Shown piece by piece: positions 16,033 through 57,361 of a stretch of DNA of 64,000 nt (position 1 is its first letter; every line of letters starts with the position of its first letter). The DNA comes from Laetmonice hystrix. Lineage: Eukaryota. Below the pieces are notes generated by a model. The model did no database searches and was not told the origin of the DNA. It saw only the letters and a list, made by a program, of their open reading frames with translations. The stretch lies in NCBI GenBank assembly GCA_965235115.1, contig OZ249436.1:24058001-24122000 (forward strand), given 5' to 3'. The position numbers and the translations under genes were made by a program.

Positions 16033-17295
16033 CCGGGTGAGTTCTCTATTTGTTCAGCCAGTGAGTGCAGGTCTACTTATTTCTTAATCCTATCACTTCT
16101 TTCAAATACTCGGCCATGGTTAATCATGCAGTGTTGGTCAGCCCCAAAAAGGTTATAACTAATATTATTTTTTTGTACACCCACGTGTACCTCCAGGGTG
16201 ACGCCATGTTGGATTTGGAGTTAGAACGGTGTCACCCATTTATTATGTATCTGTAACTGTATAACTCATGTAAATAAAGATTAAAGTACGGATGTTCCTT
16301 TAAATGCTCTACCTTGTGTAATTTTTGCTAGCTCTCCTCTTCATCCATACTCCCCACAATCAAACCACACACCATAAACAAAAGTGTTACTCAAAACTAA
16401 ACTCAAAACATAAGGACGAAAGTGGTGGACAACCCTAAGTACAGGACGAAAGTTAGAAAGTGTTATTTTAGAGCGCTGCTGCTCAAAAACCAGTGTACTG
16501 GCCGGGTGTCTTGGGCTGGTAGAGCCGTCAACACGTTTGTTGTCATCGCTTGGGCCAGAGACTGGCCGGCGATAACATCCTCATAATCTGCATTGGCTAC
16601 AATTTTATAGCCTGGGTTCGATCTGTTTGTACTTTCATTGTCACTTGTGACATCATAGTATAGTTAACTACGTATTTTGATACATAATATGTTTCACTGA
16701 CAAAAAGACAGTGCGTGCCTCGTTAAGTCAACTGTGGCTGTGACGTCATAGAGAGGACATGCAGCACAGTCGTGACGATTAACGTAGACTGCACTATTTT
16801 GCAGTCTAGCTCTCGTTTTATTAAAAGATGGATTAAAATACTACAGAAGCAGAGACTTCGAAGGTCAGTAGATAGTCTCAGAAAATTATAGCATTATAAT
16901 ACCTCTGTAAACATCACTGTAGGGCCCCTGATCCTACACAGCTTAGATTGAAGCCTGGCTGTCTAATGATTGTGATATTTAACGTCATAATCAAAGTTTT
17001 GGGAACTTTTAAATTTCCAAACAAAGCTCGCTGTATTCCAAACTATAAGGAATCTCGCTAAAAGAAAGATATCTATGGAGACCTTACGATGTGGGGAATA
17101 ATTCTGGGTACTTTTTTGTATAGGTCGTCGCGACAGATTTTGCATGGCAAGACCGGCTAGGTAGAAAAGTTTTCAGATTTTTTATACTTTTTTCGTGGGT
17201 TTTAAATGGCCATACCAAAAAGAATCCTTAAATCTATTTATTACGTCTCCCCCCAGCTGGGGGAGACGTTTTGTTTTGCACGCTGTTTCTGACCG

Positions 17296-32516: not shown

Positions 32517-33237
32517 TGTTGCGGCTAGGCTTCGCTGCCGCTGGACATTTAATATAGTTGGCCTCCCCCGTATATATGTGTATAATCTATATGTCATTAC
32601 TGTAAACCTTATCATCTCTGTATGTTAGTATAGCTGAATACTTGTTCCCGTTTATATTCCCTTAAGGATGGGCGGCTTGGATGTTATCTATATATTTAAT
32701 CATGTAGTTGCTGGAGTATTGGGTTCCCTTAAGTCGGATGCGGGTACGGGCTGGATCCGGGGATGCTCGGGCCGTCACCTCCCAAGTTGTATAACGGTTG
32801 TATCGATACCGTTGTCATGGGGAGATGACACCGGCACGTACCCAGCATCTTCCGTCCGTGTTGGCCTCCATGGCGGACCCCCAGCTGGGCGGGCGGTGTC
32901 ACTAGTGTTTAGTATATATAGGGGCACCGAATATTCACTACTTCACCTATTCTCTCATCTGGACTTATAGACTTATTCCCTTATGGACGACTTCACTTAT
33001 TGACTTAGTCACTTAGTAATCAGCCGTCTTGTCAGTCTTGTCAGTTAGCATGAGGTTCAGCCTCTAGGCTAGTAGAGTATCCCCGATACTCTATATCATG
33101 TATCATGTCGTCTGAAAATACAGTTATCATCACCGCCAGCCGTCGTTGACTTATCTTCACTGGGGTACATGGTACGGTAAGTCCCCCCGTCTCCCTCCTA
33201 CCTACGACCGCCGCCTCTCCAGGGTGGGTCCACAACA
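32517..33237 (+). mobile_element. Solo LTR of the env-bearing Gypsy family, 4-bp TSD CTAT
   Basis: Colinear with 2677-3508 apart from a missing block of about 140 bp; CTAT at 32513-32516 and 33238-33241. Confidence 0.92.
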
Positions 33238-34315
33238 CTATGATGTCATAACCATGTCATCATAAGTCGTCACGGGTGCAAGATAGTACCATAGTTATCC
33301 CTACTCAGAACATGTTGGAATGGGACACCCCGGGGATGGGATCCATTGTGGTAATCTAGTTAATTAATCAACTTCAATGTGTAGTCTCCTCGACAGGTTT
33401 CAACTTTTGTCCTTTTATAGGGGATCAATGGTTTACAATGTCAATTAAATGTAACCTACAGGCAGTGTTTGCACGGTAGTTACATGTTCGTTATTTACGC
33501 AAATAAGTATATAAATGTTACACCTAACTTTGCCCCCTCCCCGAGTATGTTTACTTCCGTTGCTATGGGGGACACGGTCACCACTTCCAAATTGGCGCGC
33601 CTCGCACACGGAGGTCTTTTCTCTTTGGAATGCTTGGTAAATGCTCCCGCTGTGGTGTTTCACATGGCCAGCCCTTTGGATCCAGGTGCAAACGAGCTAT
33701 GGCAATCATCGAAGGGTATGATCGTTCAAGTCCAGAATATTTAAAATATTTAGAGGACGTGTATGCCAGGGCGGACATTATATCGCAACATTATGCAGAG
33801 GAAATGGCCACTCTTAGGGAACAACTGGCTACCGATCAAACGACCGCAACAACGCCTTTGGGTCCAACTGGCAAGCCAAGTCCGAGTCCTGATTTCGCTC
33901 CTGTCCTACAATCGGTACAGGAACGTCTTGCAAAGTTGCCAGCTTCTAACCAAGCATCATCATGGCAGCAGGCGGTCAGGGTGCCCCTCCACCACAGGTA
34001 GCACCAAGCGTGTCGGACCTGTTGACCGCCCCCTTGACCAAGGCCTTGAGCAAGCTGGCCGTCCTTGACCAAGTAGATGCAAGTAAATATAGACCGGAGT
34101 CTTATGCTCAAAAGTCTCTCCCCTTCAAAAAGCGGGAATATGCCAAAATGGATATGTTGGATTTATTTTACGGTTGGACCTGTGTTGCTGATCACTTGTG
34201 CGAGTCAGGTGAGGATATCCAGTCGTTCCTCAAACATATTAAGTTTACCACCGAGATCCTCCACTCACGGAAATTCTATGATGCGGGAGCAGTGGAGTAC
34301 AATTGTTATGTTGTA

Positions 34316-34527
34316 TAGTCTGTTCGCTCTAAGAAGAGCTCGACCTCGGCCTCATTAAAGCTGTTAGTTCATTTGGGGTAATACAGAACCACGTGAAATT
34401 TGGTCATATTCTTGAATGACAGGCGGTGATGACTTGTGATAGGCCAGCTGTGGGTAGACGGGAGGAGGGGGGCAGGTCAGAGCTTTAATGAGGCCGAGGT
34501 CGAGCTCTTCTTAGAGCGAACAGACTA
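34316..34527. mobile_element. MITE with about 47-bp TIRs and TA TSD, inserted in the DIRS gag
   Basis: TAGTCTGTTCGCTCTAAGAAGAGCTCGACCTCGGCCTCATTAAAGCT and its inverse; excision restores ...YVVDKVIEGG... Confidence 0.88.
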
Positions 34528-35771
34528 TAGACAAAGTGATTGAAGGAGGGTCGTCATCCTTTTCTCCCGATCCTTTGGGAGTTTCGCTACACTTTACACC
34601 CAATGTTATTCCAAGCGACGTGGACGTCAGCCATGGGGCCTCACTGCACCGTGCCTATATGACGTCAGGAACCTCCTCTGGTTCATCCATGCCAAGGAAA
34701 CCCCAATGGGGGAAACCTTTTGTTTCTGGGCCTAGACGTCAAGATGAAACACCGTCTGATTTTCCGCCGGACCTGTGTTTCCAGTACAACTATCGATCCT
34801 GTGCTAGAGAAGATTGTCCTAAACTCCATCTGTGCCGCAAGTGCAGAGGCAAACATCAGGCTGATGGTTGTAAAGAGAAACTGAGGGCATGATATACTTC
34901 CCGACACCATGGGCCACCCCCAGACTTCGCTTTCCACAAGAACAGTTCCCAACATGACGTCGGCTTACCCATGTCCGAGCATGTTGCTGATAGTGACACA
35001 ACTGATGAACATTCCAGAGTCGAGAAGCAATTCTCCAACACCTCACACACTTTGGTTCCGGCAAGCAGTAACCTGCATCCAACTGCATGTGATAACTTCC
35101 CAGTATTTATCGATGGTGACGACCATGTCTATAGATACACATGTACTGAGGATGGTCATGAGTGTGGCTTTACCGAGGTTCGCCTCGCTAACGACATGTT
35201 GGAGTCTGATATCAGTGTTCATACCTTTGACAATTTACTACGTGATTGTGAGTCTAATGTAGGTTGGGTACCCAACTGATAATAACCATGAGTCAATATG
35301 TTCCAATGGTTATGTTGATGTGGACAGTTGTGTCGACTACTCCCTTCCTCATGATATTTGTTATGATTCCATACATGGTTTCCACAGATATTCAAATTAT
35401 GCGACGGTATCCCAGTTCCAAGGTCTCCGATGTTTTAAGAATAGGATCTTTGATCACTATCTTGAAAACCTAAATACTTTGGCCTGTGGTCTGGCAATGA
35501 TTGACAAGCAGGCTATTTCAACGTGGACATTGTGCCTTCGGGAGTGGAGGATCTCAACCCTGCTCATGTGCATTGGTTCAATGTCAACGTGCCTATGGAC
35601 ACTGAACTTGAGCATCACATAACATTAGTACCCTGGAACTAATCCTAGTCTGGCTCGCAACCAAGCATTGGGCTCACACTTGGTCCAACCTACACGTTTT
35701 TGTGCTCAACACCGCCTGCAAATCGTACCAGCTTCTGACCACAATGTTGTTACAGTACATTTGACAATTAT

Positions 35772-37431
35772 TTGTCGGCGATAATTTCACTACATAAATA
35801 CTTTGGTGCAGACCAATCCTTCAGGGCTTCCTATTTGGTGCAATTGGTCATGAAAGGATTGGCAAGGACTCTGGGTAAAGAAGTAACTCAGAAAATGGGA
35901 TTAACCCCTAATCAGCTATTAATGATGTACCATTCCTTGAATCTTTCTGATGTCAATGTGATTACTCAGTGGACAGCACTAATGTTTTCATTCCGCACCT
36001 TACTGCGTAAGTCAAATATTGTACCCGACAACCCAAACAAGTTGGAATCGGTAGTAAAACGATGTGATATAAAATTCACCAACCAGGGTATTATGGTTCT
36101 TGTGCGCCAGTCCAAAACTATCCAAAACAAGGAAAAGACTTTGGAAATTCCAGTGAACTTCATTAAGAGTAACTGTTTCTGTGCTGCATCAATGGTTTTG
36201 ATACATTGCCACAGGTGCCCTCAACCACAAGACAGTTCTCTTTTATACTTAGTGTCAAAGGGATCTTGGAGACCCCTACTTTACAGGGATTTGTTACGTT
36301 TTTTGAAAGAGTCTGTGAAACTAATAGACCTGGGGCCTGTTTCTCGAAGGTGTCGTAAGTTCAACACTTACGCAAGGATTTACGCAAGGCATTACGAATG
36401 GCATAAGTCATGGCGTAAGATGGTTTCTCGAGAGGTACTTACGCAAGACCTAACCTGAGGACTTGGGCATAACAGGGTACTGTAATGACACACTAGATGG
36501 CGTCAAAAAGAGGTCAAATAAGTGCGTTTCCATGGCAATCTATTGTCATTGAAATAGCTTCACCAGTTCGAAGTGGCCAACACATGAGAGGGAGGTCTGA
36601 GGACAGGGGATAGAGGTGTATAAAAATCAGTCACGCGGTGGTGCATATAATCTTTCTGGGGGTAAATCAGAGGTACACATTAGAAATGAATATAAGAAAA
36701 TTGTCTCTGACATAAGATGTTTGTCCATTATTTTGAACAAGAGTAGCCCATAGTGAGACTATAGGGTATGATAGTGCATTCAAATGATACAAATTCATTA
36801 ATATGGTACCAAATGTCGTTATCAGTAAAGCGATAAGTTTATATCTCTCTCATTTTCCTGTTCTATAGTTTATGTTCGATTACGTCAGATTCATGAAAAT
36901 AATGTTCATCGTTTTTCAGTGTAGCAAGCCAAATGATGCTACATTGAGGAAAATCAAAGTAAAATCAAGTTTACTGCTAGCACGTTTCTACCCATAATTT
37001 GGACTTATATTGAGTATACATGTCTTTTAACCTGCCCAATGTTTTCCTGCTTCACTGGTCAATGGTCACTTTCCACAAACCACTCAGAATCGGTTGCGTA
37101 CATCACCTCGCTGGTCGTCGTAACTTTAGACCTGATTTACGCAACGGCGCAAAGTTGCGCAGCCGTCGAGAAACACCAGAGACAGGATACGCATGGCGTA
37201 ACTCATACGACACTTTCGAGAAACAGGCCCCTGGATCCCAAATTTGTGGGCCTACACTCTATGAGGAGAAGCAGAGCAGGTTTTCTCCACGCTTTAGGTA
37301 TGCCCCTTGTGGATATCATGACAGTAGGGGACTGGCAGTCTCTGGCCGCATTGTCATACCTTGTCACTCCTATCAGTCGCAAAAGACAGATTGAATCCTT
37401 GGTAGGATCTGAACTGGACAAACTGCTATAA
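35772..37431 (+). pseudogene. Tyrosine recombinase of the DIRS-like element, split by a MITE
   Basis: Removing 36333-37230 plus one CTG gives ...LKESVKLIDLDPKFVGLHSMRRSRAGFLHALG...GDWQSLAALSYL in one frame. Confidence 0.85.
36333..37230. mobile_element. Harbinger-like non-autonomous element, CTG TSD
   Basis: GGGCCTGTTTCTCGAA / TTCGAGAAACAGGCCC with CTG at 36330-36332 and 37231-37233. Confidence 0.88.
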
Positions 37432-42157: not shown

Positions 42158-43932
42158 TGAAACGGTCCTGGCATCTGTCAGATACGGTCAGTTGCCTTTT
42201 AGAGCCTCCCAGCGAACTTGCCATTAAGTGTCCGGCAAAAGAATTTTACCTGACTATGTTTGAGTTGGTCCTGATCTTTTGACAGTTTTTATTTTCCGTC
42301 CTTGTCCTTTTTACCTGTAACAGAGTATGCTCTTCTAGTCCAAACTCCATCCAGTGCCCGACGGGCGCCATGTTTGTTTACTATCGAGGGGAAGTATGAA
42401 TCGCAAGGCATGCTTGTTTTGTTTGTTTTTTTGTTTTATGCATTATATTGGCTTCCGAGACAGAGTATGCGCCTGTTTATTTATCTTAGACAAGATTACC
42501 AAGTTTAAAGTTAAAAACAGTTAGCTTTAGGAGTTTTAGTTTCTGGATTTGGTGCCAGCCAATGAGATGCTCACCCAACTTGGAGGGCGCGTCATCAACT
42601 TGGCTCGGTGCCAACGCACGTGGCCCAGGCCGCGTGGTCCTGGCGCCTATATAAGGGGGCCACAACAAGCCCCGGGAGGGAGACACTTACAAACCCCTCA
42701 CAACTCAACAACTCACTACCATACTCACTCTACTGCCAACGACCACGTACCCTACCAACAAACCCGACTGAGTGCGGACCCAGCCCCGGTGTCGCGGTCT
42801 GTTTTCTCCGCGGTCTGAAATCTCCGGGAGGTTGGCTGCAGAGTCGCGTATATTTCTATCGTTCTCGGTAAACTATCCGAGATATCAGGCCAGGATGAAG
42901 TCTCAAGTAATAACCCTTTTCTCCTCCGTCAGTTTTGGTCCGCAATTTGCCTATCCAGGCTGTCGTTTATTACTGTTTGGAAGAAAACTCTACCGCCTAT
43001 CAGCTAGCAGACGACCGGAGGTGTGAGCTCAAACTGCGACACGCACGTGCTCACTTGGTTAAGTTTGGCCTCTAAACAATAGGAAACCCTGCACCCGGAG
43101 ATTACAGACCGGCGGAGAAAACAGACCGCGACACCGGCTGAGCGCTCACCCCACAACCGACCTACCAACCCGCGTGCTACAATACCCTGCTACTATAGGC
43201 CTAACACAATTACCAACTAAACAACAGGTACGAGTATATTTTCTTTGCCATGTCTTGCAAACCGCGACCTTTGGTCGCAAGATTTAGGGAACATTTGGAG
43301 ATGATGGTTCGGACTAGGGCCAGTGACGATTAAGTTATAGGGTAGAATATATGGTATAACCACGTCGGGTATAACATTAGTCTGATTAGACGGCGTCTGG
43401 TATAATTGAACATTTTAAGCTCTGAGTAAGTGATCTCGTTTGATGACTCGTTGGATTTCAACTGATTTTAAGTTTAACGACCGTTTGTACAGGCACCGAG
43501 ATGACGCTGTCTGTGGTCAGTAGACCTAGGTATTAAGTTGTGTGTGAGTGGAAGCTGAGAGCGGACGCTCCCCCGCCCAGCGCCCAGTGCAGGGCCGTAC
43601 GTAACCGGGCCACCTGTTAGGGATTAGTGAGGCCCGCGGTGGGCTCGGTGTGTGTGAGTCGAGGGTGCATGTTTAGGCCTGCATGCGGGTTTGCATTTTA
43701 TTGTCTCGTCATGTTTCTGTTCGATTATTTGTTTGATTGTCAATTAAACTGTTTAAATTGTACCACTGTCTCCAAGGTCTCACCCTTAGTGTTAATGCCA
43801 TCCAGTGATCCGAACCCCGTTGTCCCCCGCTTAATTGGCCTTATTCATTAATAGATAGAGTACTAAAATGAACACAACGAGAAGTACGCCCAATATGCCC
43901 CACACCCCTATTCGAGCACGAAAACCGCTACA
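42158..43932 (+). repeat. 5' LTR (contains a MITE insertion)
   Basis: TGAAACGG...CCGCTACA; matches 55929-57361 except for the MITE, a 6-bp indel and a few substitutions; TATA-like CTATATAAG near 42647. Confidence 0.95.
42790..43133. mobile_element. Ginger-like MITE in the 5' LTR, CCGG TSD
   Basis: TGTCGCGGTCTG / CAGACCGCGACA with CCGG duplicated; the 3' LTR has the empty site with a single CCGG. Confidence 0.9.
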
Positions 43933-43936
43933 TTTT

Positions 43937-43956
43937 TGGTGGCCGTGAACCAGGAT
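43937..43956 (+). promoter_or_regulatory. Primer-binding site, tRNA-His-like
   Basis: TGGTGGCCGTGAACCAGGAT just after the LTR resembles TGGTGCCGTGACCAGGAT, the complement of an animal tRNA-His 3' end as I recall it, with two extra bases. Confidence 0.6.
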
Positions 43957-44517
43957 GGCTAATTACACTGGTGAGATCACAACTAATGCTCATTAATTGA
44001 GACTCTATTCCAGCTGGGATACTTAGTTGTACGTTGAAACAGACTCTGACTCAGACTTACTTAGTCTTAGATAACTAGGGAACTGATAACGACCAACTGA
44101 TACAGGAACTAACTGAGTATAGTGAAAACAATAGACAGAAGTAGGCCTAAAGAACAGACGACTATACCATGTATGAGGCTGACATGCATTTGACGACAGT
44201 GCCACTAACTAACTAGCACATTATACACCCAGTCATCAGACATGCACTTAACGACAGTGCCAATAACTAACTATAATATAGCACATTATACGCCCAGTCA
44301 TAACCGTACAGGTTTTCTACTGTTTAACGAGTAACATAGATTATACTTAGAATTAGACGGAGAACAGGAAGGTTGGCTATAACAATAACTTAGTATAACT
44401 GAAAGTTAGAATGAGATGGTGGAAAGCAAGGCTGGATGACTGATTAGAGGGCCCTAAGATTGCGTTATAGTTAGGTTACGGAGTACCATATGACATTGGG
44501 CATAGGACAGGTGGTTG

Positions 44518-46791
44518 ATGGCGACCGCCCAATATCTTGGCTCAGCATTAATCTTAGCAAGTGTAGCTTGGTGGTTTGGTGGAAGTGAGGAGACCTTGAA
44601 GCTAGGGATAGGTTTTGAAAGGCCGAGGAGCAGTGAGGATACAGGAGTTTTTGGGAGTTGGGTTGACAAAGTTGGACTTATTCTTGATGGTCTCATTTTG
44701 CTGGTACTTTGGATAGCTTTTGGCCCAGGTTTGAACTCCTTCAGACAGTGCTGCAGGACCCTTGTTAGAAAGTTTGGTAGAGTGGTAAAATTCATTGTTC
44801 TCTGGGTAATCATGGATGGTCTGAAGTGGGGAATATCTTATGTGCGGAGTTTGTGGTCGGGCTCCGAGACGGACACATCTGACAGTACGGCGGCTAGCAC
44901 TGACGATTCAGGCGGCCAGCCTGGGCTAACCCCCGAGGAAGTGCTGCCACCTGGTGGCTTACACCCACACTATACAGCCAACCTTCCCAGGCGTGCAATT
45001 CATGACTACCGACAGGGGCCGCCCGATTATATTGCTACATGTACTCAGTATGGTGAAAACATTACCAGACCTGTCAATAACGCCCCTAGTGATTTGAGGG
45101 TCCACTGGGCTCCCCATGGCCAGAGGGAGGAGAGGCAGGAATTGTTTGATTCTTCCCGGGGAACACCTCCTAGAGGTATTTTTGGGTCTGCCAACGGTGA
45201 CAATGACAAAGACCACCGATCAGTATGGAACCATTTCCCAGAAGTAAGGGTCAGTGAAGGAAATACCCCTTCTGTAGGTGACAGGTATGAGTTGGGTGTA
45301 AACAGGCCACTACTCCGAGCCCAGAGTTACCCCACCCAGCGACAGCAACCAGATCATTATACCGACAGTCAGGCATACTCTCACAGGGCAGATAGATCTC
45401 CCTACGTTGGCTACCATTCACATGCCACACCCACACGGAATAAATACAATGGGGAAGGGAATCACCCTGCCAACAGCTGTGAATCCTACCACAGCCACGT
45501 GACTAACACTTATACCAGGCCCATGACAGAAAGGTATGCTGGGGATAACCTACACATTGCAGCTGATTTAAGTCGATACCCAGGGACTGGCAACCCTACA
45601 CCATTGGTTGATAGCCATTACCGTAGTCCGGCCTCCCACTGGAACGCTGACAATGACAGGTCAGCATATGACTATGACAGGAGTGTGAATGAGGCTAACA
45701 GGTGGGTCTATGACACTGTCCCAAACGGGCAGGCTGACATTTACAGTAAGTACCCTGACCACAGACCAAACTCACATGTACCTCCCAGCCCACAGGCCCA
45801 GAGATACGCCAGTTATTGTACACCCACACAGGAGTTGTTTGAGACAAGTCCCTACATGAGCTTATCAGGTGCAGGGAATGCCCAAAAACACTGGGGCGAG
45901 CCCCCACCTGCTACAGCCACTAACCAGTTGAGTCCAATACCCCCACAGCCACCATCCCCTGACCTGAGCAGACGGAAGCAGAAGGAGCCCATGAAATACA
46001 ATGGGAAGACTGATTTCGGGGATTATTTAGGGCATTTTTCAGCTATTGCCCACTGGAACCTGTGGACCTATCATGAACAAGGAATGCAGCTGGCATGTAG
46101 CTTAATTGAGGGAGCACGTGAGGTACTGAGTACTGTGCCTAACCATCTTCAATATGATTATGACTGTCTCATAAGTGCGCTGCAAAGGAAGTACAGCCCT
46201 CCTGGCCGTGAGTCACAATTCGCAGTGGAGTTTATGAACCGTATATGTAAACCTGCCGAATCTGTAGCTGAATATGGACATGCCCTTCAGCTGTTGGCAA
46301 AACGAGCGTACCGGGGCACCACCATTGCCGAGCCAGTCATGATAGACATGTACATCAAAGGGCTACCAGAGCTCGCTATGCGGCGCCATGTCCACTCTAC
46401 TAAGCCAGTGACTTTGGCTGAGGCAATTACCAATGCGGTCTCTTACCAGGCTTTTGACAGAAGCCAGGTCACTGTACCGCCACCGAAACCCCAACCTGTG
46501 AGGCACGTGGCTCCCGTGCCAGACGCCGGCCCAACTGAACAACAGGGCAGTTTTCAAAGAACTACCCAGGCAGCCCAACGGGGATACAGCCCACAGTACA
46601 GTGACCCGGGCCCCCGCCAGTTTCAGTCCAGACGCGATCGGTCCACTGTTAAGTGCTACCGTTGCCACCAGTTTGGACATTACTCCAGAGAATGTCCAGA
46701 AAATGTTTATGTAGGCAAACAGAGGTCTGTCCCAACCCAAGCACCCCAGAATGCCCAAGATAGGGGACGGCAAAACCATTTAAACGAATAA
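44518..46791 (+). CDS. gag: Gag with hydrophobic N-terminal extension, capsid domain and CCHC zinc knuckle
   Basis: Capsid-like KEPMKYNGKTDFGDYLGHF...; knuckle CYRCHQFGHYSREC; first ATG at 44518. Confidence 0.9.
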   Translation: MATAQYLGSALILASVAWWFGGSEETLKLGIGFERPRSSEDTGVFGSWVDKVGLILDGLILLVLWIAFGPGLNSFRQCCRTLVRKFGRVVKFIVLWVIMDGLKWGISYVRSLWSGSETDTSDSTAASTDDSGGQPGLTPEEVLPPGGLHPHYTANLPRRAIHDYRQGPPDYIATCTQYGENITRPVNNAPSDLRVHWAPHGQREERQELFDSSRGTPPRGIFGSANGDNDKDHRSVWNHFPEVRVSEGNTPSVGDRYELGVNRPLLRAQSYPTQRQQPDHYTDSQAYSHRADRSPYVGYHSHATPTRNKYNGEGNHPANSCESYHSHVTNTYTRPMTERYAGDNLHIAADLSRYPGTGNPTPLVDSHYRSPASHWNADNDRSAYDYDRSVNEANRWVYDTVPNGQADIYSKYPDHRPNSHVPPSPQAQRYASYCTPTQELFETSPYMSLSGAGNAQKHWGEPPPATATNQLSPIPPQPPSPDLSRRKQKEPMKYNGKTDFGDYLGHFSAIAHWNLWTYHEQGMQLACSLIEGAREVLSTVPNHLQYDYDCLISALQRKYSPPGRESQFAVEFMNRICKPAESVAEYGHALQLLAKRAYRGTTIAEPVMIDMYIKGLPELAMRRHVHSTKPVTLAEAITNAVSYQAFDRSQVTVPPPKPQPVRHVAPVPDAGPTEQQGSFQRTTQAAQRGYSPQYSDPGPRQFQSRRDRSTVKCYRCHQFGHYSRECPENVYVGKQRSVPTQAPQNAQDRGRQNHLNE

Positions 46792-46819
46792 AAGCTGGAT
46801 TCCGGCCCAGGAGTCCAGC
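46779..46819 (+). promoter_or_regulatory. Putative -1 ribosomal frameshift signal between gag and pol
   Basis: Slippery heptamer T TTA AAC (46779-46785) in the gag frame, followed 8 nt later by stem-loop GCTGGATTCC-GGCCCA-GGAGTCCAGC; the -1 frame joins pol once the piggyBac-like insert is removed. Confidence 0.8.
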
Positions 46820-46864
46820 ACAGACTGATTACAGTATAGGGCAAACTAACAACTGTCAGGTTAA

Positions 46865-47975
46865 CCATAGAAATGTACTGGGAGGGAAGACCAACTCTCT
46901 CTTTTTTCGCTTGGGACGCTAGTAGTCTTATGCGTTTGCAGCGCCCTCCAGTGGTTATGAGACCCGTAACGTCATCTGCCTTGGCCCAAGTGTAAACATG
47001 GGAAGGACCGATCGTCTATTGTGTCCCTGGATGCACAAATTATCAAAATAGAGCAGGACGAAAGGCAGGGAGGGTTAATTAATTACTGCAGTAGACTTAT
47101 CTAGCCCGCACAGACAAACATATGCATTTCAAACGACTGACACCGAATTATGCACTCGCGCCAGTTCAAGCGGGCTTGGCCGCAGCCAGGCGCAGGCTTG
47201 GGTCAACCCCCAATAAGAACGGCCCATTAGAAATACTAAATCACAACAATAATTTAAGAATCTATCCAGGCCGGATTTTAGAGTAATCCTCGATCTATAA
47301 ATGTATATGACATTCACATCTGTTACTTAATCTTTTCAAAATTTACCCAAAAAAACTGTCAGATTACGAGGGTACGAAATTGTAACGTCACAAACTTTGC
47401 CGATCTCCGGCTATGACAGTGCTTGGATTGAGAAAGGAGGGACCTTGCCAAACCATTCTAAGTCTATGACATTGTTTGGTTCAATATTCTATCCCTTTAT
47501 ATCACGTTTCGACGTCCTTCCTTGTGTATTTTAGTAGTTAGGTGCGTTTCAACTGCCGAAGCGAAGCGCCGTCCGCCATTTTATTTAGGGCCCGTTATGA
47601 TCACATTCCATTGTGACCCATTGTGACGTAGCCCTATTGTGCATTGTTCCTGACGTCGCTGATTGGGTCTCTCAATCACGGAGTGGACAGGGCCCGATAA
47701 AATCGATTTTTAAAATATCTAAGAGTTTGCTAGGGCACCTAGATTTTTTCCAAGCCTTTGCTGCATTCTGCTCCACTGCCTATACACTTTATCCATAATC
47801 AAGTTGATGTTTAAATCCAAGAGAGTCTAGGCCTAATGTCGCCGTCCTATGCCGAGCGTTGCACCCGAGCACCGGTCTCATAACCACATGGGGGCGCTGC
47901 GAACGACCTAACATATTTGAGCGATAATTGGGGCAGGAAAGAGAGTTAGCCTTCCCTCCAGTACAGTTCTATGGG
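46865..47975. mobile_element. piggyBac-like non-autonomous element, TTAA TSD, interrupting the start of pol
   Basis: CCATAGAAATGTACTGGGAGGGAAG / CTTCCCTCCAGTACAGTTCTATGGG; TTAA at 46861-46864 and 47976-47979; excision restores ...CQVNPIIRNRTNVRSDNRF... Confidence 0.85.
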
Positions 47976-47979
47976 TTAA

Positions 47980-50900
47980 CCCAATAATACGGAACAGGAC
48001 TAATGTGCGTAGCGATAACCGTTTTGTGTGTCAGAATGATGTGATGAGTGGGCGCCAGAATCATCCTGTTAAGTCTCCAACTCCAACTGGTGATAACCAT
48101 CTTGTGGACATTGTGAATCATGTGCCTCGTAGTAGGTGCCGTAATACTAATAGCCCTACCGAGGATAGATATCCCAAAACTAGTGGTGACAGGTGCGTTG
48201 TTGATGCTGTAGAGTCTCAGACTCCAGCTGGTGATACCCATTTAGTGGACAAAGTAAATCAGACTCATAGTGGTAGATGCTGGGATAGCCCTACTGAGGA
48301 CAAATATTTCAAGACTAGTGGTGACAGGTGTTTCAAAACTAGTGGTGACAGGTGCGTTGTTGTTGATGCTGTAGATTCTCAGACTCCAGCTGGTGATACC
48401 CATTTAGTGGACAAAGTAAATCAGACTCATAGTGGTAGGTGCTGGGATAGCCCTACTGAGGACAAATATTTCAAGACTAGTGGTGACAGGTGTTCCAAAA
48501 CTAGTGGTGACAGGTGCGTTGTTGATGCTGTAGAGTCTCAGATTCCAGCTGGTGATACCCATTTAGTGGACAAAGTAAATCAGACTCATAGTGGTAGGTG
48601 CTGGGATAGCCCTACTGAGGACAAATATTTCAAGACTAGTGGTGACAGGTGTTCCAAAACTAGTGGTGACAGGTGCGTTGTTGTTGATGCTGTAGAGTCT
48701 CAAACTCCAGCTGGCGATACCCATTTAGTGGACAGAGTAACTCAGACTCATAGTGGTAGGTGCTGGGATAGCCCTACTGAGGACAAATATTTCAAGACTA
48801 GTGGTGACAGGTATTCCAAAACTAGTGGTGACAGGTGCGTTGTTGATGCTGTAGAGTCTCAGATTCCAGCTGGTGATACCCATTTAGTGGACAAAGTAAA
48901 TCAGACTCATAGTGGTAGATGCTGGGATAGCCCTACTGAGGACAAATATTTCAAGACTAGTGGTGACAGGTGTTTCAAAACTAGTGGTGACAGGTGCGTT
49001 GTTGTTGATGCTGTAGATTCTCAGACTCCAGCTGGTGATACCCATTTAGTGGACAAAGTAAATCAGACTCATAGTGGTAGGTGCTGGGATAGCCCTACTG
49101 AGGACAAATATTTCAAGACTAGTGGTGACAGGTGTTCCAAAACTAGTGGTGACAGGTGCGTTGTTGATGCTGTAGAGTCTCAGATTCCAGCTGGTGATAC
49201 CCATTTAGTGGACAGAGTAACTCAGACTCATAGTGGTAGGTGCTGGGATAGCCCTACTGAGGACAAATATTTCAAGACTAGTGGTGACAGGTGTTCCAAA
49301 ACTAGTGGTGACAGGTGCGTTGTTGATGCTGTAGAGTCTCAGATTCCAGCTGGTGATACCCATTTAGTGGACAAAGTAAATCAGACTCATAGTGGTAGGT
49401 GCTGGGATAGCCCTACTGAGGACAAATATTTCAAGACTACTGGTGACAGGTGTTCCAAAACTAGTGGTGACAGGTGCGTTGTTGATGCTGTAGAGTCTCA
49501 GATTCCAGCTGGTGATACCCATTTAGTGGACAAAGTAAATCAGGCTCATAGTGGTAGGTGCTGGGATAGCCCTACTGAGGACAAATATTTCAAGACTAGT
49601 GGTGACAGGTGTTCCAAAACTAGTGGTGACAGGTGCGTTGTTGTTGATGCTGTAGATTCTCAGACTCCAGCTGGTGATACCCATTTAGTGGACAGAGTGG
49701 GTCATGGTAATAGTGATAGGTGCCGTGATAGCCCCACTCAGGACAGATATCTCAGAAATCGTGGTGACAGGTGTTTCACAACTAGTGAAGGCACATGTTT
49801 GAAAACTGGTAGTGACTGGAGCAGTGGTGAAATTGTTGAGTGTCAGCCTGCAGTCGACTGTGAATCTTATGTTGAACCACCATGTTGGGAGGAGGCTAAC
49901 TGGGACCCAACAGATGGAACCCATGACAATTCTACTAATGACAGATGTTGTCACACAAACCATGACACGGCTGTCGATAACTGTGGTAGGCTGAACGATG
50001 ATGGGCAAGCCACTGCTGGTTTGACAGTCCAGGATGAGGACAAGGAGCTCTATGATATTGATGGTTCAGTAGACGATAGAGAACAGGAAAGACTAGATGA
50101 TGGGGAGAGTTATGTCAGGACGCTGAGTGATGACAGCTGGTATGTGCATGGAACAGTAGGTGACAAAACCATTGAATGGTTAATAGATTCAGGCGCAGGG
50201 CCGAACCTACTTGATATTGGGGTGTATAATACTTTGGACTCACGAACCCGCCCACCTTTGATGGAATGTGCGACAAATTTACTGGCTGCTAATGGGACCA
50301 GGCTTAAGGTTTATGGACAGATTGGTGTAGAAGTGAAGTTCGGCACAATGTACTTTGACATCCCAGTGGTGATAGTTAACTTAGGAGGATTACAAGGTAT
50401 CTTGGGTAATCGATTTATCCGCTCTGCTGAGGAGGTGACATTCGACCTTCGAAGGGGAACAATGACTATAGGTGACCATATAGAGAATTTACATGAGAGA
50501 GCAGGTGATCACAGCTGCTACATTAGGTTAGAACAGTCAGTGGAAGTGCCAGGCAATCACGAGATCCAGGTGGTGGGAAGAGTCGGTCAAAACTGGCCGC
50601 TTGCCACCCACAACAGAGGGTTGATAGAGGCTACGAGTGATTTCAAACACAGGACTGGCCTGATAATTCCAAAATCGTTGGTGAGAGTGAGACATGGGAT
50701 GGTCATGGTTACTTTGTCTAACTTTCATGACACTAGTGTTCATGTAAAGGAGGGCATGGTTGTGGGCACACTGTCACAAGTTGAATGTGTGAGACGCATT
50801 TCCTCTGAAAAGGTCAATATCAAAACAACTAGGTCGGTTGGTGATCTACCTGAACATCTGCAGCACTTGATAGATGTAAACAAATTGACAGCAGAACAGA

Positions 50901-53900
50901 CAGGTCTGCTCTGTGGCGTGGTACATGACAATAAAGACTTGTTTGCTACACCGGAGGGGCCTGTTGGCCGCACTGGTCTAGTAAAACACACCATCAACAC
51001 CGGAGATTCTAGGCCAATCAAAAGACCCCCACGTAGATTCCCTGCCACACAGCAGCAGCAAGTTCAGGAAGAAATTGACAAAATGATGGGGCAAGGTATT
51101 ATTCAAGAAAGTGACAGCCCATGGGCCTCTCAGGTAGTATTAGTCAGGAAGAAAGATGGAAGTACCAGGTTTTGTGTCGATTATAGATACTTAAATGCAG
51201 TGACTAAGAAGGATGCCTATCCTCTTCCAAACATTACTGACTGTATGGATGCACTAGGGGGCGCCACCTGGTTTTGTACACTGGATTTGGCCAGTGGATA
51301 TTGGCAGGTAGAAATGGATGCACGTGATAGGGAAAAAACTGCATTTTCCACCAGGAAGGGTCTGTACGAGTTCCGCGTTATGCCATTCGGTTTAACCAAT
51401 GCCCCGGCCACATTCGAGCGTTTGATGGAGCGCGTACTGAGGAGCCTCCAATGGGAATTATGCCTGGTGTATCTGGACGATATAATTTTATTCTCCGCTA
51501 CATTCGAAGGGGCTGTCCAAAATTTGCAGATGGTACTCGGGCGCCTACGGCAAGCTGGCTTAAAATTGAAGGCCACAAAATGTGCTCTGATGAAACGGCA
51601 GGTGGCCTTCCTGGGCCACATCGTTGATGGTAATGGGAGTACACTGTGATCCCTCAAAAGTGGAAGCCGTGCGCGAGTGGGAAACCCCAACTACGGTGAC
51701 TGACATCAGAAGTTTCTTAGGGTTGGCCTCGTATTATAGGAGGTTTGTTCATAAGTTTTCTACCATAGCAGCCCCACTAACTGAGATGACTAAGAAGGGT
51801 CAGCCCTTCGAGTGGACTGAGGCTTGTGAATCTGCTTTCCAGGAGTTGAAACAGAAACTGACCGAGGCTCCTGTATTAAGCTATCCCTCACAACTTGATG
51901 GTGACACGTTCATACTAGATACAGACGCGAGTGACAGCGGCATCGGCGCGGTACTTTCTCAAGTTCAAGATGGCCGGGAGAGGGTAATTTCTTATGCTAG
52001 TAGGATGTTGTCTGACTCACAAAGGCGGTATTGCGTGACCTACAGGGAACTGCTGGCTGTGGTGGTCTTTGTTAAACAGTTCAGGCACTATTTGTTGGGC
52101 CGCAAATTCCGAATTAGAACCGACCACGCATCTTTAAAGTGGCTGTCAAAGTTTAAAGACGCAGAAGGGATGGTGGGACGGTGGATAACTTACTTAAGCA
52201 CCTTCAACTTTGATTTGGAACACAGGGGAGGAGCACTACACAGCAATGCAGATGCACTGTCCCGCAAGACGCCGAAAAAATGGTTGCTGGCCTGCAAGCA
52301 GCAAACGTGTGCAGACTGCCCTGTGATGCCAGAAGGCAAGTCAGAAGCCTTAAGGCCAGAGGCCTCGTACAGCTCAGAGACTGCGGAGGTGATAGTTGCC
52401 CCTAACAATACTGTCAGCCAACTTGCTGATGACGTGTCTGATGTTGAGACAGCACCCAAACTCCATGCAAACGACTGCAACTTTGGTACCCCTGTAACCC
52501 GGGTGGCCATGCTTAGCATGCAGGACAGTGGTATCCAGCCAGGTGACAGGCAGCACCCTGTGATGACCCAACAGGTCCGCTTGATTCCTGTCACTGACAA
52601 CCTGTCAGAACAGTCCCCCACTGATCTCAGACCAAGGGTGATGGCCATAACTGACCAAAATGGTGGCCAGCCACCTGACACTCCCACATGTAATTGGGTG
52701 GATGCTTTATTGAGGGCAGATCTAGCAAAAGTACAAACTGATGATGCTGTGATCAGCAAGGTACGGCAGTGGAAGATAGCAGGTGAAAGGCCAGACCGCC
52801 CAAGGTTGCAGGCAGAAGGTGACCTTGTGAGAGCTCTGTGTGAGCAGTGGGCTAGTTTGGAGATGAAGGAGGGTGTACTCTATAGAAGAAAACGTGCTCG
52901 GGCCAGGGGTAGCACTACTGAGACTTTGCAACTTGTTGTACCCCAGAAATTAAGGCGACAAATTTTTCAGGAGGTGCACTCTTCGAGAGTTGGGGGTCAC
53001 CTAGGGATCAATCGCACTGTTGACAGTGTTCGCCGCCGGTTTTACTGGCCAGGATGCAAAACTGACCTTAAGTTGTGGTGTCAACGATGTACCGCCTGTG
53101 CACAGATCAAGCCTGGGCCCAGATTCAAAGCTGCCATGCACCACGTGCCCACTGGCTCCAGGTTTGATCGGGTATTTATGGACATTTTGGGAGAGTTGCC
53201 AGAGACAGAGAGAGGGAATAAGTATGTACTAGTGGTGACCGATGGGTTCACCAAATGGACACAGGCCCTTCCATTGAGAGACCAGACGGCCCAAACGATA
53301 GCCGATGCGCTCATGGTCAATGTGTTCAGCCTTTTTGGAGTGCCAAGACAGATCCATACGGATCAAGGGAGAAACTTCGAGTCGAACCTGTTTAAAGAGC
53401 TGTGTGCCTTACTAGGGATAGAAAAGAGCCGGACTACCCCATACCATCCACAATCAGATGGTCAAACTGAACGGTTCAACCGGACACTCCAGCAGATGCT
53501 GAAAGCTTATGTAAGGGAATGCCGCGATGACTGGGATGATCACTTGCCATATGTTATGATGGCCTATCGCTCCACCGTCCATGATAGCACTCGTACAACA
53601 CCAAATTTAATGTTTCTGGGCACTGAGAATATACTCCCCATCGATTTAACAATGGGCCCACCCCCGCAAGAACAGTCCCCACAGTGCCCCATAGAGTACG
53701 TAGAATGGGTAAGACAAGTGATTCTTACAGCACATGAGGCAGCCAGGAAAAATCTAGGGAAGAGTACGGCCCGTCAAAAACGAACTTATGACTTGCGTGC
53801 AAAACCAACCATCTACGGTATTGGAGATTTTGTTTGGAGGTGGTATCCACCCTCTGCCAACTGTAAATTAGGAAAAGGCTGGACGGGGCCATATAAGATA

Positions 53901-54185
53901 GTTGGTTGCCCAAATAACTTAAATTATATGATTCAGATAGAGAGAGGCAGTAGGATAGTTAGGGTTCATGTAGACGACCTGAAACCCTACAATGGGGATC
54001 CACCCTCAGGCTGGTCTGAGCCTGACACTGACAATGACAGTACTGACGCCCAGCCTGAATCCCCTGCTGACGAGTCCACAGATGTTCCTAATAGCCAACA
54101 TGACCCTGAGGGCAACACAGAACCCCCAACACAGAATCGTCACAGCCAACGCAGGAGGAAGCCAACACAGCGCCTTGACCTATAA
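47980..54185 (+). pseudogene. pol: Gypsy pol (tandem repeat, protease, RT, RNase H, integrase), one frameshift near 51635
   Basis: Protease LIDSGA; RT RFCVDYR, LDLASGYWQ, YLDD; RNase H DTDAS, TDH; integrase HHCC, TDQGRNF, GPY. An extra G in AATGGGAGTACAC splits ORFs 48005..51649 and 51624..54185. Confidence 0.93.
48070..49815 (+). repeat. In-frame coding tandem array, 159/162-bp unit (53/54 aa), about 9 near-perfect plus 2 degenerate copies
   Basis: Unit HSGRCWDSPTEDKYFKTSGDRCSKTSGDRCVV(V)DAVESQIPAGDTHLVDKVNQT; TGGGATAGCC recurs at 48281, 48443, 48602 and onward. Confidence 0.97.
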
Positions 54186-54263
54186 CAATCCTATCTTGAC
54201 CTAACCAACTACACACAATAACTCAATTATCACATCCTAAACTGACTTTGTTATATTTACAGG

Positions 54264-55337
54264 ATGCCGAGGTCACGACATGAGTGCCGTGACTGTCTGC
54301 TACCATTTAACAGCAGACAAGACCTGTGGGCCCATCGACAACAGCATCATGGTGACCCAGCTTACCAGTGCCCCCTATGCAGATATATCAATAGCTCCAG
54401 GAGTCACATGCTACTAGTTCACCTTCCCGACCGGCACAACGTCCACAGCATGACTGCCAATGACATCGCTCTGGTGGACCAAGGCGAGCCAGCTCAACAG
54501 TGCCCCACCCAGCTGCCCTCTCCACACCGACACCGACATCGCCGTAACTCCCTTGGCAGACACAGGGAATACAACCCCAGCCGACCCACATCAAGAGAGA
54601 TGGCGACATCCCGCCCACGACAGCCTACACCATCAGCTTCCTCGAACCCACTACCACCACGGCCCAGCCCCCGGCCAAGCCAAACAACAGAAGGGAGTGA
54701 GGACCCCAACCTGCAGCGGACCGACCCATCTCCAGGCTTAGGCAGCCCACCTGACATCACGTTGGGCAGCCCACCAACAAGCAGAGCCCCCGCACAGGAG
54801 CGTCACCGGGACGTGCCCATCCCAACAGTAACGAGCCAACGAGAAGTAGAGGTCCAGACAGAGGACCCAAAGCCAGACACGTCAACCTGCCCCACCCCAG
54901 TCACTGCCAGGCTCGACATGGGCGAGTGGCAACCAATGGCCGCCGTCCTGTTGGTCAGGACGAGGACGACCATCACCACCCACCCCAACGGGGGTACCAC
55001 CACAGAAATCCTGAGGGACTTCTTACTCCCAGAATCATCCCTGCAGGGCCCGACCCACCCCACCGCCACAGCTCGCCCACAAACTCCGGATTCAGCAAAC
55101 CAGTACGAGGGGAATAGCACCTGTTCGTCGATCCTGCCCCCAAGGAGGCACGCCAGGAGTCGGCCCATCGCCCCAACGCCAGAGACCCCCGCCACCCCAG
55201 CCTCTGCCAGACATCCACCTGCCCAGCTGTCCGCCTCATCTTCATGCAGTTCGCCCTGCAGTGGCTGCAGGACCCCAGCACTGTCACCTCGTAACCCGCC
55301 AGCCACCTCTGGTTGGACAACTGAAGAGGAGGACTAG
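54264..55337 (+). CDS. ORF3 of the Gypsy element: two N-terminal C2H2-like zinc fingers and a Pro/Ser/Thr-rich tail
   Basis: CRDC-x12-HRQQHH and CPLC-x13-HLPDRH; open 357 aa between integrase and PPT; preceded by CTGAC...TTTACAG acceptor-like sequence. Confidence 0.75.
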   Translation: MPRSRHECRDCLLPFNSRQDLWAHRQQHHGDPAYQCPLCRYINSSRSHMLLVHLPDRHNVHSMTANDIALVDQGEPAQQCPTQLPSPHRHRHRRNSLGRHREYNPSRPTSREMATSRPRQPTPSASSNPLPPRPSPRPSQTTEGSEDPNLQRTDPSPGLGSPPDITLGSPPTSRAPAQERHRDVPIPTVTSQREVEVQTEDPKPDTSTCPTPVTARLDMGEWQPMAAVLLVRTRTTITTHPNGGTTTEILRDFLLPESSLQGPTHPTATARPQTPDSANQYEGNSTCSSILPPRRHARSRPIAPTPETPATPASARHPPAQLSASSSCSSPCSGCRTPALSPRNPPATSGWTTEEED

Positions 55338-55409: not shown

Positions 55410-55870
55410 TATTGTAAGTGTTACCAGGATGTTTTATCATGTTGTGAAGCAATGCTCGGTAAGTGCATTTATGTTTAGAAGCATCACTTCTTGCGGGAGT
55501 GTTTGTTTTCAAGAGGTGGATGACATTACTGAGTGTATAGTATAGTTAAGACAGTTTATTTGTAAGTGTTACCAGGAGGTTTCATCATGTTGTGAAGCAA
55601 TGCTCGGTAAGTGCATTTATGTTTAGAAGCATCACTTCTTGCGGGAGTGTTTGTTTTCAAGAGGTGGTTCACATTGCTGAGTGTATAGTATAGTTAAGAC
55701 GGTTTATTTGTAAGGGTTACCAGGAGGTGTCATCGTGTTGTGAAGCAATGCTCGGTAAGTGCATTTATGTTTAGAAGCATCACTTCTTGCGGGAGTGTTT
55801 GTTTTCAAGAGGTGGATGACATTGCTGAGTGTCTAGTATAGTTAAGACGGTTTCTTGTAAGTAGTGACAG
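55410..55870. repeat. 148-bp tandem repeat x3 in the Gypsy 3' UTR
   Basis: TTGTAAG(T/G)GTTACCAGGA recurs near 55412, 55560 and 55708, with a partial fourth start near 55856. Confidence 0.9.
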
Positions 55871-55928
55871 GAAATTTTATCATGTAAGTAAGCAATGCGA
55901 GGACGCATTAGTCCAAGGGGGGGGGTAA

Positions 55929-57361
55929 TGAAACGGTCCTGGCATCTGTCAGATACGGTCAGTTGCCTTTTAGAGCCTCCCAGCGAACTTGCCATTAAGT
56001 GTCCGGCAAAAGAATTTTACCTGACTATGTTTGAGTTGGTCCTGATCTTTTGACAGTTTTTATTTTCCGTCCTTGTCCTTTCTACCTGTAACAGAGTATG
56101 CTCTTCTAGTCCAAACTCCATCCAGTGCCCGACGGGCGCCATGTTTGTTTACTATCGAGGGGAAGTATGAATCGCAAGGCATGCTTGTTTTGTTTGTTTT
56201 TTTGTTTTATGCATTATATTGGCTTCCGAGACAGAGTATGCGCCTGTTTATTTATCTTAGACAAGATTACCAAGTTTAAAGTTAAAAACAGTTAGCTTTA
56301 GGAGTTTTAGTTTCTGGATTTGGTGCCAGCCAATGAGATGCTCACCCAACTTGGAGGGCGCGTCATCAACTTGGCTCGGTGCCAACGCACGTGGCCCAGG
56401 CCGCGTGGTCCTGGCGCCTATATAAGGGGGCCACAACAAGCCCCGGGAGGGAGACACTTACAAACCCCTCACAACTCAACAACTCACTACCATACTCACT
56501 CTACTGCCAACGACCACGTACCCTACCAACAAACCCGACTGAGTGCGGACCCAGCCCCGGCTGAGCGCTCACCCCACAACCGACCTACCAACCCGCGTGC
56601 TACAATACCCTGCTACTATAGGCCTAACACAATTACCAACTAAACAACAGGTACGAGTATATTTTCTTTGCCATGTCTTGCAAACCGCGACCTTTGGTCG
56701 CAAGATTTAGGGAACATTTGGAGATGATGGTTCGGACTAGGGCCAGTGACGATTAAGTTATAGGGTAGAATATATGGTATAACCACGTCGGGTATAACAT
56801 TAGTCTGATTAGACGTCGTCTGGTATAATTGAACATTTTAAGCTCTGAGTAAGTGATCTCGTTTGATGACCTGTTGGATTTCAACTGATTTTAAGTTTAA
56901 CGACCGTTTGTACAGGCACCGAGATGACGCTGTCTGTGGTCAGTAGACCTAGGTATTAAGTTGTGTGTGAGTGGAAGCTGAGAGCGGACGCTCCCCCGCC
57001 CAGCGCCCAGTGCAGGGCCGTACGTAACCGGGCCACCTGTTAGGGATTAGTGAGGCCCGCGGTGGGCTCGGTGTGTGTGAGTCGAGGGTGCATGTTTAGG
57101 CCTGCATGCGGGTTTGCATTTTATTGTCTCGTCATGTTTCTGTTCGATTATTTGTTTGATTGTCAATTAAACTGTTTAAATTGTACCACTGTCTCCAAGT
57201 TGTTGGTCTCACCCTTAGTGTTAATGCCATCCAGTGATCCGAACCCCGTTGTCCCCCGCTTAATTGGCCTTATTCATTAATAGATAGAGTACTAAAATGA
57301 ACACAACGAGAAGTACGCCCAATATGCCCCACACCCCTATTCGAGCACGAAAACCGCTACA
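55929..57361 (+). repeat. 3' LTR (1433 bp) preceded by polypurine tract
   Basis: Purine run AAG9 at 55915-55925, then TGAAACGG...CCGCTACA. Confidence 0.95.

Follow-up and report, generated by a model that had tools for sequence, protein, structure and literature searches.

We analysed a window of 64,000 nt of Laetmonice hystrix DNA (contig OZ249436.1 of assembly GCA_965235115.1, positions 24,058,001 to 24,122,000 of the forward strand). It contains an LTR element whose third open reading frame, ORF3, encodes an accessory zinc-finger protein (Table 1). The Pfam domain order, gag, protease, a weak dUTPase-like stretch, RT, RNase H and integrase, places the element in Ty3/Gypsy (Metaviridae), and the hallmarks of this group are present: TG...CA LTRs, a target duplication, a primer-binding site (PBS) and a polypurine tract (PPT). 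The LTRs differ by 4 mismatches and 1 gap across 1437 aligned nt and the element is flanked by a 4-nt ATAT duplication, such that the insertion is young. The PBS-like stretch may resemble the 3' end of a tRNA-His.

Table 1. Features of the Gypsy element and its ORF3, as positions in the window
Feature	Position	Strand	Remarks
5' LTR (TG...CA)	42158..43932	+	TATA-like box 42648-42654
Inverted-repeat insert in 5' LTR, ~345 nt	about 42790-43134		not in 3' LTR
Second candidate splice donor, inside LTR	GT at 43228	+
Primer-binding-site-like stretch	43937..43956	+	common to relative L001
Candidate splice donor directly 3' of PBS	43968..43976	+	GT at 43971
gag, 757 aa	44518..46791	+	N-terminal hydrophobic segment, CCHC knuckle
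Insert interrupting pol start	46859..47981	.	113-nt imperfect inverted repeats (74%) at borders; stops in all three frames
pol piece 1	48044..51649	+	53/54-aa tandem repeat (48164-49744), protease, weak dUTPase-like stretch, RT
pol piece 2, different frame	51627..54185	+	RNase H and integrase; frame break near 51636
Splice acceptor	54242..54263	+	branch-point-like CTGAC (54242-46), T-rich tract, CAG; AG at 54261-62, one G, then ATG
ORF3, accessory zinc-finger protein, 357 aa	54264..55337	+	env slot after integrase; without stop
Two tandem C2H2-type fingers (residues 8-29, 36-58)	54285..54437	+
Conserved LGSP motif pair (residues 157-171)	54732..54776	+	five spaced copies in P0152
LC8-anchor-like motif REVEVQTE (residues 193-200)	54840..54863	+	candidate
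Conserved block with predicted beta-hairpin (residues 221-260)	54924..55043	+
Trp-containing acidic C-terminus	55308..55334	+	kept in 4/4 full-length close homologues (window, P0001, P0151, P0152)
148-nt unit, three tandem copies	55412..55855	+	3' untranslated region
Polypurine tract	55915..55925	+
3' LTR	55929..57361	+

The gag and ORF3 reading frames are both open in the window copy. Pol is interrupted by an insert at its start and its frame is broken a second time further on, so that this copy cannot be autonomous; both breaks had been missed by the first-pass annotation. A slippery-type heptamer, TTTAAAC, lies at 46779, and the gag end of the relatives L001, L002 and L004 has one too. The two candidate splice donors (GT at 43971 and at 43228) hold the 4th and 5th best donor scores within 42660-48100. 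In L001, the sole relative with an identical PBS examined for a donor, none comparably strong was found after the PBS.

Some smaller features of the element were recorded as well. The dUTPase-like match (residues 831-919 of pol piece 1, between protease and RT) is weak, with an E-value of 0.17; the relative P0167 is annotated as dUTPase in its source. Every unit of the pol tandem repeat contains a donor-like CAG/GTGCGT, ten copies in total at 48193-49633. A copy 78% similar to the inverted-repeat insert of the 5' LTR is located at 15760-16046 of the window.

The ORF3 protein

An intact frame of 357 aa after integrase had been claimed from the first reading of this DNA. We confirmed it at 54264-55337 on the plus strand, 78 nt past the integrase stop; the start of 54240 given earlier takes in the splice acceptor. 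By itself the length of ORF3 is modest evidence for a gene, since C is abundant and T scarce at each of the three codon positions: in simulated DNA (2000 Markov runs per order) a frame of this length appeared in 0.15-1.05% of cases. The acceptor taken alone is likewise modest evidence. The case that ORF3 is more than a chance frame rests on its relatives (see below).

Both C2H2-like fingers reported at first pass are borne out by the alignment and by the predicted fold. Finger 1 (C8-x2-C11-x12-H24-x4-H29) has the standard C2H2 spacing, while finger 2 (C36-x2-C39-x13-H53-x4-H58) exceeds the usual spacing by one residue. The ligands C8, C11, H24, C36, C39, H53 and H58 are invariant in 6/6 aligned rows. 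Pfam C2H2 matches in ORF3 are weak and stay under the curated cut-offs (E 0.015-0.071); among the ORF3s of 14 relatives a single one (L002) passes the cut-off of zf-C2H2_4 and 7 more match below it. In an AlphaFold2 model based on the 6-row alignment both fingers adopt a beta-beta-alpha fold with a pLDDT of 83-91, and disorder is predicted outside the fingers and a hairpin. Without an alignment, the fold predicted for residues 1-75 was of low quality (pLDDT 49). The hairpin, residues 230-254 with a pLDDT of about 85, corresponds to what had earlier been seen as a short hydrophobic patch: the patch is present and is predicted to form a beta-hairpin.

ORF3 has neither a TM segment nor a signal-like N-terminus; its highest 19-residue hydropathy is 0.77, and a Pfam scan returned no env family. 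An Env glycoprotein, which would carry a signal peptide and a TM anchor, was ruled out on these grounds, in agreement with the first-pass annotation.

A structural search with the ORF3 model gave nothing at E <=0.001 or Z >=5 and barely covered the hairpin. The neighbours obtained are tandem C2H2 proteins, mostly DNA-bound, and include an RNA-bound C2H2 structure (1un6). Superposition of the finger pair on DNA-bound tandems yielded rmsd values of mostly 7-8 A, Foldseek E-values of 0.04 or worse and a best Z of 4.6. Searching the ESM Atlas with the whole ORF3 returned generic C2H2 clusters alone, at low recognition, and no usable match was found there for the hairpin part. A homodimer prediction for residues 190-265 scored 0.15 against a mark of 0.32.

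Between close homologues of about 40% identity four blocks are kept: the finger pair, the LGSP motif, the predicted hairpin and the Trp-containing acidic end, the last of which had been noted previously as an acidic terminus. The linkers between these blocks vary freely, and the recognition-helix residues of finger 1 differ among homologues. One linker of the window protein harbours the candidate LC8-anchor-like motif. Anchors of LC8 partners are described, in the available sections of PMC6607443, as TQT-type motifs in disordered regions, with no prolines before them, with D, E or P at position +2 and with a hydrogen-bonding residue at -4; the same sections state that many anchor-bearing peptides fail to bind LC8. 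Motifs of this type lie within 60 residues before the hairpin in 5/6 homologues, compared to about 5% per shuffled sequence, where the pattern was chosen after inspection of the sequences and the 6 homologues share descent. They sit in otherwise unconserved linkers; position -4 is occupied by D, E or Q, and +2 in most cases by D or E. A literal TQT is found in L001 alone, P0152 lacks an LC8-type motif, and none is present in 14/14 ORF3s of other groups. ORF3 also possesses conserved SP motifs of the phosphorylation type. The short motifs of the protein may also resemble SUMO-interaction, phosphodegron and kinesin W-acidic motifs.

Relatives, splice acceptor and selection

A full HMMER scan with ORF3 provided 322 matches to E 0.001, the 150 best of which were examined by matched range. 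Judged in this way, most of the 150 are generic poly-finger proteins. Nine matches were read as sequence, and 5 of them are true ORF3 relatives (P0001, P0003, P0006, P0014 and P0054, E 4e-29 to 3e-7); P0151 and P0152 were added from the clusters of these relatives. Homologues with E-values of 4e-29 to 3e-12 have the fingers, LGSP, the hairpin and the acidic end in common with ORF3. A word-based search with the single ORF3 protein found 0 homologues among 6527 candidates, and with the ORF3 alignment it found P0006 alone (1 of 8000 scored). For metagenome contigs compared to the ORF3 alignment 0 of 42 pattern matches were confirmed, and viral contigs contained no match for the integrase or the pol alignment.

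The first-pass annotation had proposed to check whether ORF3 is linked to Gypsy pol, and such a linkage was found in three ways. Of six distinct contigs with ORF3 homologues, 4 (364524, 339431, 46042 and 320522 nt) equal pol-bearing contigs in exact size; on the pol side, the comparison covered the 32 listed members of the two clusters that come nearest to the window, at 74% and 71% identity in integrase. Identical contig sizes tie the ORF3 homologues to close pol relatives, which is indirect linkage. The remaining two contigs (419505 and 132735 nt) had no match among the 32 pol members listed. Direct linkage on DNA is provided by L001 (integrase identity 63%, same PBS), where a 532-residue ORF3 homologue follows pol (profile E 3e-9). 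The third line of evidence, a C2H2-like motif behind integrase in 28/48 relatives, is described below. Named integrase relatives, at 46-48% identity, come from Pinctada, Mytilus and Priapulus. As a separate observation, L001 has between pol and the zinc-finger ORF an extra open frame (6776-7372, +; 184 aa from ATG) with an acceptor-like T-rich tract and CAG just 5' of its ATG, such that this element seems to hold four genes.

For the breadth of the arrangement the best 80 of 565 confirmed stretches from a pol-alignment scan were taken. Among the 48 loci with at least 700 nt past the integrase stop (32 shorter ones were dropped), a C2H2-like motif within 1.5 kb after integrase was found at 28 in sense but at 1 in antisense direction, and in 2.4% of shuffles. 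Grouping at 80% integrase identity, window included, leaves 15/27 families with a sense motif versus 1 with an antisense motif. A long ATG-started frame accompanies the motif at 22 of the 28 loci; at the other 6 the frame is short or has no ATG. In L001 and L005 the fingers are slightly farther than 1.5 kb from integrase, and in L042 and L051 the ORF is located between terminal repeats. At least 7 loci (L007, L009, L010, L016, L017, L019 and L069) have a 3' repeat 99-669 nt after integrase and no ORF3. ORF3 is thus dispensable in parts of the group, i.e. common and not universal.

In a quick integrase tree the window groups with P0156, P0292 and P0158 (99), followed by P0161, L001 and P0160 (99), beside a group that contains the Pinctada and Mytilus proteins (93). 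The zinc-finger label is scattered over the whole of this tree, with a clustering not above that of shuffles (74/500 as low). Outside the finger the ORF3s form groups without mutual BLAST similarity: the two-finger/hairpin type of the window, a two-finger type in L002 and L005, a one-finger type in family 17, and others. From these sequences, the env slot may have received several unrelated captures with different jobs. Between families ORF3 frames of 457-613 codons stay open at just 29-47% identity.

Family 17 comprises the ORF3s of L049, L059, L062, L067, L068, L071, L072 and L077, in which one finger precedes a conserved stretch that extends to about residue 160; two members were scanned with Pfam and gave no match for this stretch. 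The ORF3s of L059, L067, L068 and L072 end in similar basic motifs that contain a Trp. L050 has, at +1239 after integrase, a 357-aa frame with no finger at its start; family 27 may have a different or truncated ORF3.

The first-pass annotation had regarded a TM-Gag and a pol repeat, together with ORF3, as signs of a complex Gypsy lineage. Of these the TM-Gag had to be given up as part of the package: 0/8 relatives with a readable gag and a zinc-finger ORF3 have a hydrophobic N-terminus (maximum 1.04 versus 2.22 here). For the pol repeat, an N-terminal repeat with a different unit exists in the close relative P0292, and none was seen in P0156. The notion of a complex lineage stands insofar as it rests on ORF3, not on TM-Gag or the pol repeat. 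The gag of L004 starts with a hydrophobic stretch.

The splice acceptor before the ATG (CTGAC...CAG), claimed at first pass, is present; by a crude score it is the 12th best among the element's 1138 AGs. Of 36 loci with a finger within 3 kb, 27 with a usable ATG-started frame were kept and 9 were dropped. Using a rule written after the flanks had been inspected, namely a pyrimidine tract with YAG within 25 nt 5' of the ATG, an acceptor was found at 16/27 loci and in 8/14 families, compared to 5.8% of control positions and 15 of the 198 control ATGs taken from these spacers. When each family was represented by a single drawn locus, the enrichment had a p of about 3e-6 to 4e-4. The AG lies 1 to 19 nt before the ATG, and all three frames occur among these distances, which argues that translation of the exon starts at an ATG of its own after a non-coding leader and that the exon is not fused to Gag. 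According to the available part of PMC5408684, spliced messages are the usual source of ORF3 proteins in LTR elements. Production of ORF3 from a spliced RNA is likely, judging from acceptor position and conservation.

A measurement of dN/dS had also been suggested at first pass. For the ORF3s of L042 and L054 we obtained 0.14 over 120 codons (integrase 0.05), a value from another subfamily than that of the window, as are all unsaturated values. In family 17, pN (0.37-0.52) was below pS (0.73-0.81) in 21/21 pairs, which are mostly saturated and for which the protein-guided alignment favours this direction. Of three near-identical pairs, two gave a dN/dS of 0.73 and 1.24 and the third 0.35, with few changes each. 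Between the window and L001 the synonymous sites of ORF3 are saturated. Overall, ORF3 is under purifying selection in relatives. It changes much faster than integrase, as seen in family 17 where pN is 0.37-0.52 versus 0.04-0.13. As a side observation, synonymous sites of ORF3 are saturated in L059/L077 and L067/L072 (pS 0.77-0.87) where the integrase dS is merely 0.63-0.77, while in L042/L054 the synonymous divergences of ORF3 and integrase agree. The ORF3 cassette or integrase may have been exchanged between families.

Contigs from the same sample, available as three sets, cover all 30 bins, and one of them (422 nt), from a diverged copy, runs from the integrase end through the ORF3 start. 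Same-sample copies carry frame-breaking indels in ORF3 (7 nt, 4 nt) and in integrase, as expected for decaying insertions. Examination of 40 of 245 same-sample variants gave 12 synonymous and 14 non-synonymous changes for ORF3 and 7 of each for integrase (expected synonymous fractions 0.30 and 0.28), numbers that are few and mixed with decayed copies; the variants were mostly C>T and G>A. Disruption in most copies and neutral evolution, named at first pass as outcomes that would speak against the gene, were not what we saw across families, though some same-sample copies have the indels just described.

Possible functions of ORF3 and comparison with known systems

We conclude that a broad group of animal Gypsy elements possesses ORF3 as a genuine accessory gene under selection. 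That the protein is a maintained accessory protein, as was already proposed when the fingers were first noted, we consider very probable given its homologues, the sense bias of 28 versus 1 and the dN/dS of 0.14. The opposite reading is that of an unneeded passenger, either a zinc-finger exon taken over from the host or an open frame that arose by chance in C-rich DNA. It would draw on the low-T composition, which eases long frames (up to about 1% of simulations), on a base composition without three-base periodicity and on the existence of decayed copies. Block-wise protein conservation at about 40% identity, the strand bias, the long frames kept open between families and the low dN/dS have, however, largely refuted it and leave it very improbable.

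For the role of the protein our tentative first choice is an LTR transactivator, since two fingers, a disordered P/S/T-rich tail and an aromatic-acidic end make up the layout of a small transcription factor. A spliced LTR transcript would join a non-coding leader to the acceptor at 54262, and ORF3 translated from this transcript would be a nuclear regulator. Its fingers would bind the LTR DNA of its own element and, once bound, the protein would raise the transcription of the element. Because two fingers read only few bases, ORF3 is proposed to act perhaps as an LC8-bridged dimer. Several findings count against a transactivator: the finger pair superposes poorly on DNA-bound tandems, finger 2 has an extra residue, the recognition helix of finger 1 is variable, and the ORF3s of other families have no BLAST similarity to this one outside the finger and, in 14/14 cases, no LC8-type motif. 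DNA binding is a candidate property of the modelled fingers, and the data are equally compatible with RNA binding. ORF3 might be a Rev- or CERV-like regulator that binds the unspliced genomic RNA, with the 148-nt triple repeat of the 3' UTR as candidate site, and enables its escape from splicing or its nuclear exit. We rate such a role as rather unlikely, though close behind the transactivator. With an internal acceptor unspliced RNA must be exported, the conserved SP motifs and the RNA-bound neighbour 1un6 are consistent with RNA regulation, and a precedent exists in Cer1, where CERV, the product of a spliced mRNA, carries a phospho-site of the proline-directed type and a Cys-rich part that is possibly a zinc finger (PMC10309623, available part). 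Against it, a crude regular expression for leucine-rich export signals matched in P0151 and P0152 within the predicted hairpin block and not at all in L001, P0006 or the window protein, and the aromatic-acidic end would appear more like an activation tail.

The much faster evolution of ORF3 compared to integrase would be expected under conflict, and the dominance of C>T and G>A among the 40 of 245 variants fits a host that methylates the copies. Both agree with a silencing antagonist whose fingers target the element chromatin while the LC8-type, SP and Trp-acidic motifs bind or divert co-transcriptional silencing factors; LC8 is required for piRNA-guided co-transcriptional silencing in Drosophila, according to the available part of PMC7861614. 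Yet disordered regions also change fast, the LC8-dependent silencing complex is one described in flies, and the LC8-type motif is confined to one subfamily; we rate this reading as no more and no less likely than RNA regulation. The same motif could link particles to dynein transport, or the fingers could tether the pre-integration complex, and ORF3 adjoins integrase. For such an integration-targeting or particle factor it is unfavourable that ORF3 is a separate gene with its own start, not an integrase fusion, and that elements of the same group exist without it; we hold it to be quite improbable. There is also a wider and unlikely scenario: in a large, old branch of animal Gypsy elements a C2H2 finger, a host tool against transposons, would have been turned into a counter-defence in the env slot, with fingers that recognise the own LTR, with a fast tail (here with an LC8 anchor) that displaces or hijacks co-transcriptional silencing, and with an ORF3 cassette exchanged between families like retroviral env.

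Foamy-virus Tas and other transactivators of complex retroviruses are small nuclear regulators whose genes lie near the 3' LTR and are expressed through a spliced or internal transcript. Tas and ORF3 belong to different protein families, and the ORF3 element is a Gypsy element without env. The env gene of errantiviruses and retroviruses follows integrase and has an acceptor next to its start. ORF3 is alike in position and acceptor but lacks the signal peptide, the TM anchor and fusion-protein features of Env (env features as given in the available part of PMC5408684). CERV of C. elegans Cer1 is, from what is accessible of PMC10309623, an accessory nuclear protein of a Gypsy-type LTR element that is made from a spliced mRNA and has a proline-directed phospho-site as well as a Cys-rich region that may bind zinc. 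It differs, in a comparison by description only, by three structured domains (among them a G-protein-like and a ring-forming M domain) and a possible C4 finger, whereas ORF3, with its C2H2 fingers, is disordered over most of its length and begins, downstream of integrase, at an ATG of its own that follows an acceptor. LTR elements of bdelloid rotifers also have a non-Env third ORF between pol and the 3' LTR; they contain a dUTPase domain, and their ORF3s are described as products of spliced messages. These ORF3s are, in contrast, enzymes or membrane proteins (DEDDy exonuclease, GDSL esterase, small TM proteins; available parts of PMC5408684 and PMC5718144), and a term look-up in the accessible text of PMC5408684 did not return 'finger'. 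Additional ORFs of plant elements (Athila/Tat/Ogre, Grande) also lie between pol and the 3' LTR, some are nuclear and a regulatory role has been proposed, but they belong to plant lineages and are TM-bearing or antisense (PMC7264820, in the part at hand, where 'zinc' and 'finger' occur 0 times). Zinc fingers combined with a disordered region with LC8-anchor motifs are described for the host transcription factor ASCIZ/ATMIN in the available parts of PMC5963919 and PMC10046861. The likeness is one of layout: ASCIZ/ATMIN is encoded by the host and has many motifs, against one to three motifs and two fingers in ORF3.

The word 'zinc' occurs 0 times in the accessible text of three surveys of mollusc and annelid LTR elements (PMC8220671, PMC8556966, PMC6238403; term look-up), and the available parts of PMC2774666, PMC6338049, PMC12477816 and PMC10547256 contain nothing on a zinc-finger ORF3. 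We found no description of a zinc-finger ORF3 of Gypsy elements in the literature, with Repbase reports, subscription journals and supplements outside the search. ORF3 is thus a conserved, widespread accessory gene of a kind that we found undescribed, for which a brief earlier note could exist. Animal Gypsy elements without env are treated as plain gag-pol units. If a spliced zinc-finger regulator is present in over half of the relatives that could be scored, retrovirus-style accessory control would be common in invertebrate retrotransposons. These elements point to an overlooked group of 'complex' retrotransposons that probably control their own expression. How they activate themselves or evade silencing becomes a testable question: for a small protein such as this one, direct assays are possible of the target, the partner and the action on an LTR reporter. 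Among the gene models for 'zinc finger protein' in invertebrate genomes, some would then be transposon ORF3s.

Other mobile elements were noted in the window. At 980-2613 (+) an Env-like glycoprotein in two frames, belonging to another element, has a signal-like start, a basic cleavage-type site followed by a hydrophobic stretch, a coiled-coil-like region and a C-terminal hydrophobic segment. An open LINE ORF2 of 1257 aa is located at 22384-26157 (-), with endonuclease and RT recognised by eye, and a second LINE RT at 6672-8621. The stretch 32585-33242 is a repeat of 2744-3513, and pieces resembling a tyrosine-recombinase (DIRS/Ngaro-type) retroelement lie at 33528-37431 (+).
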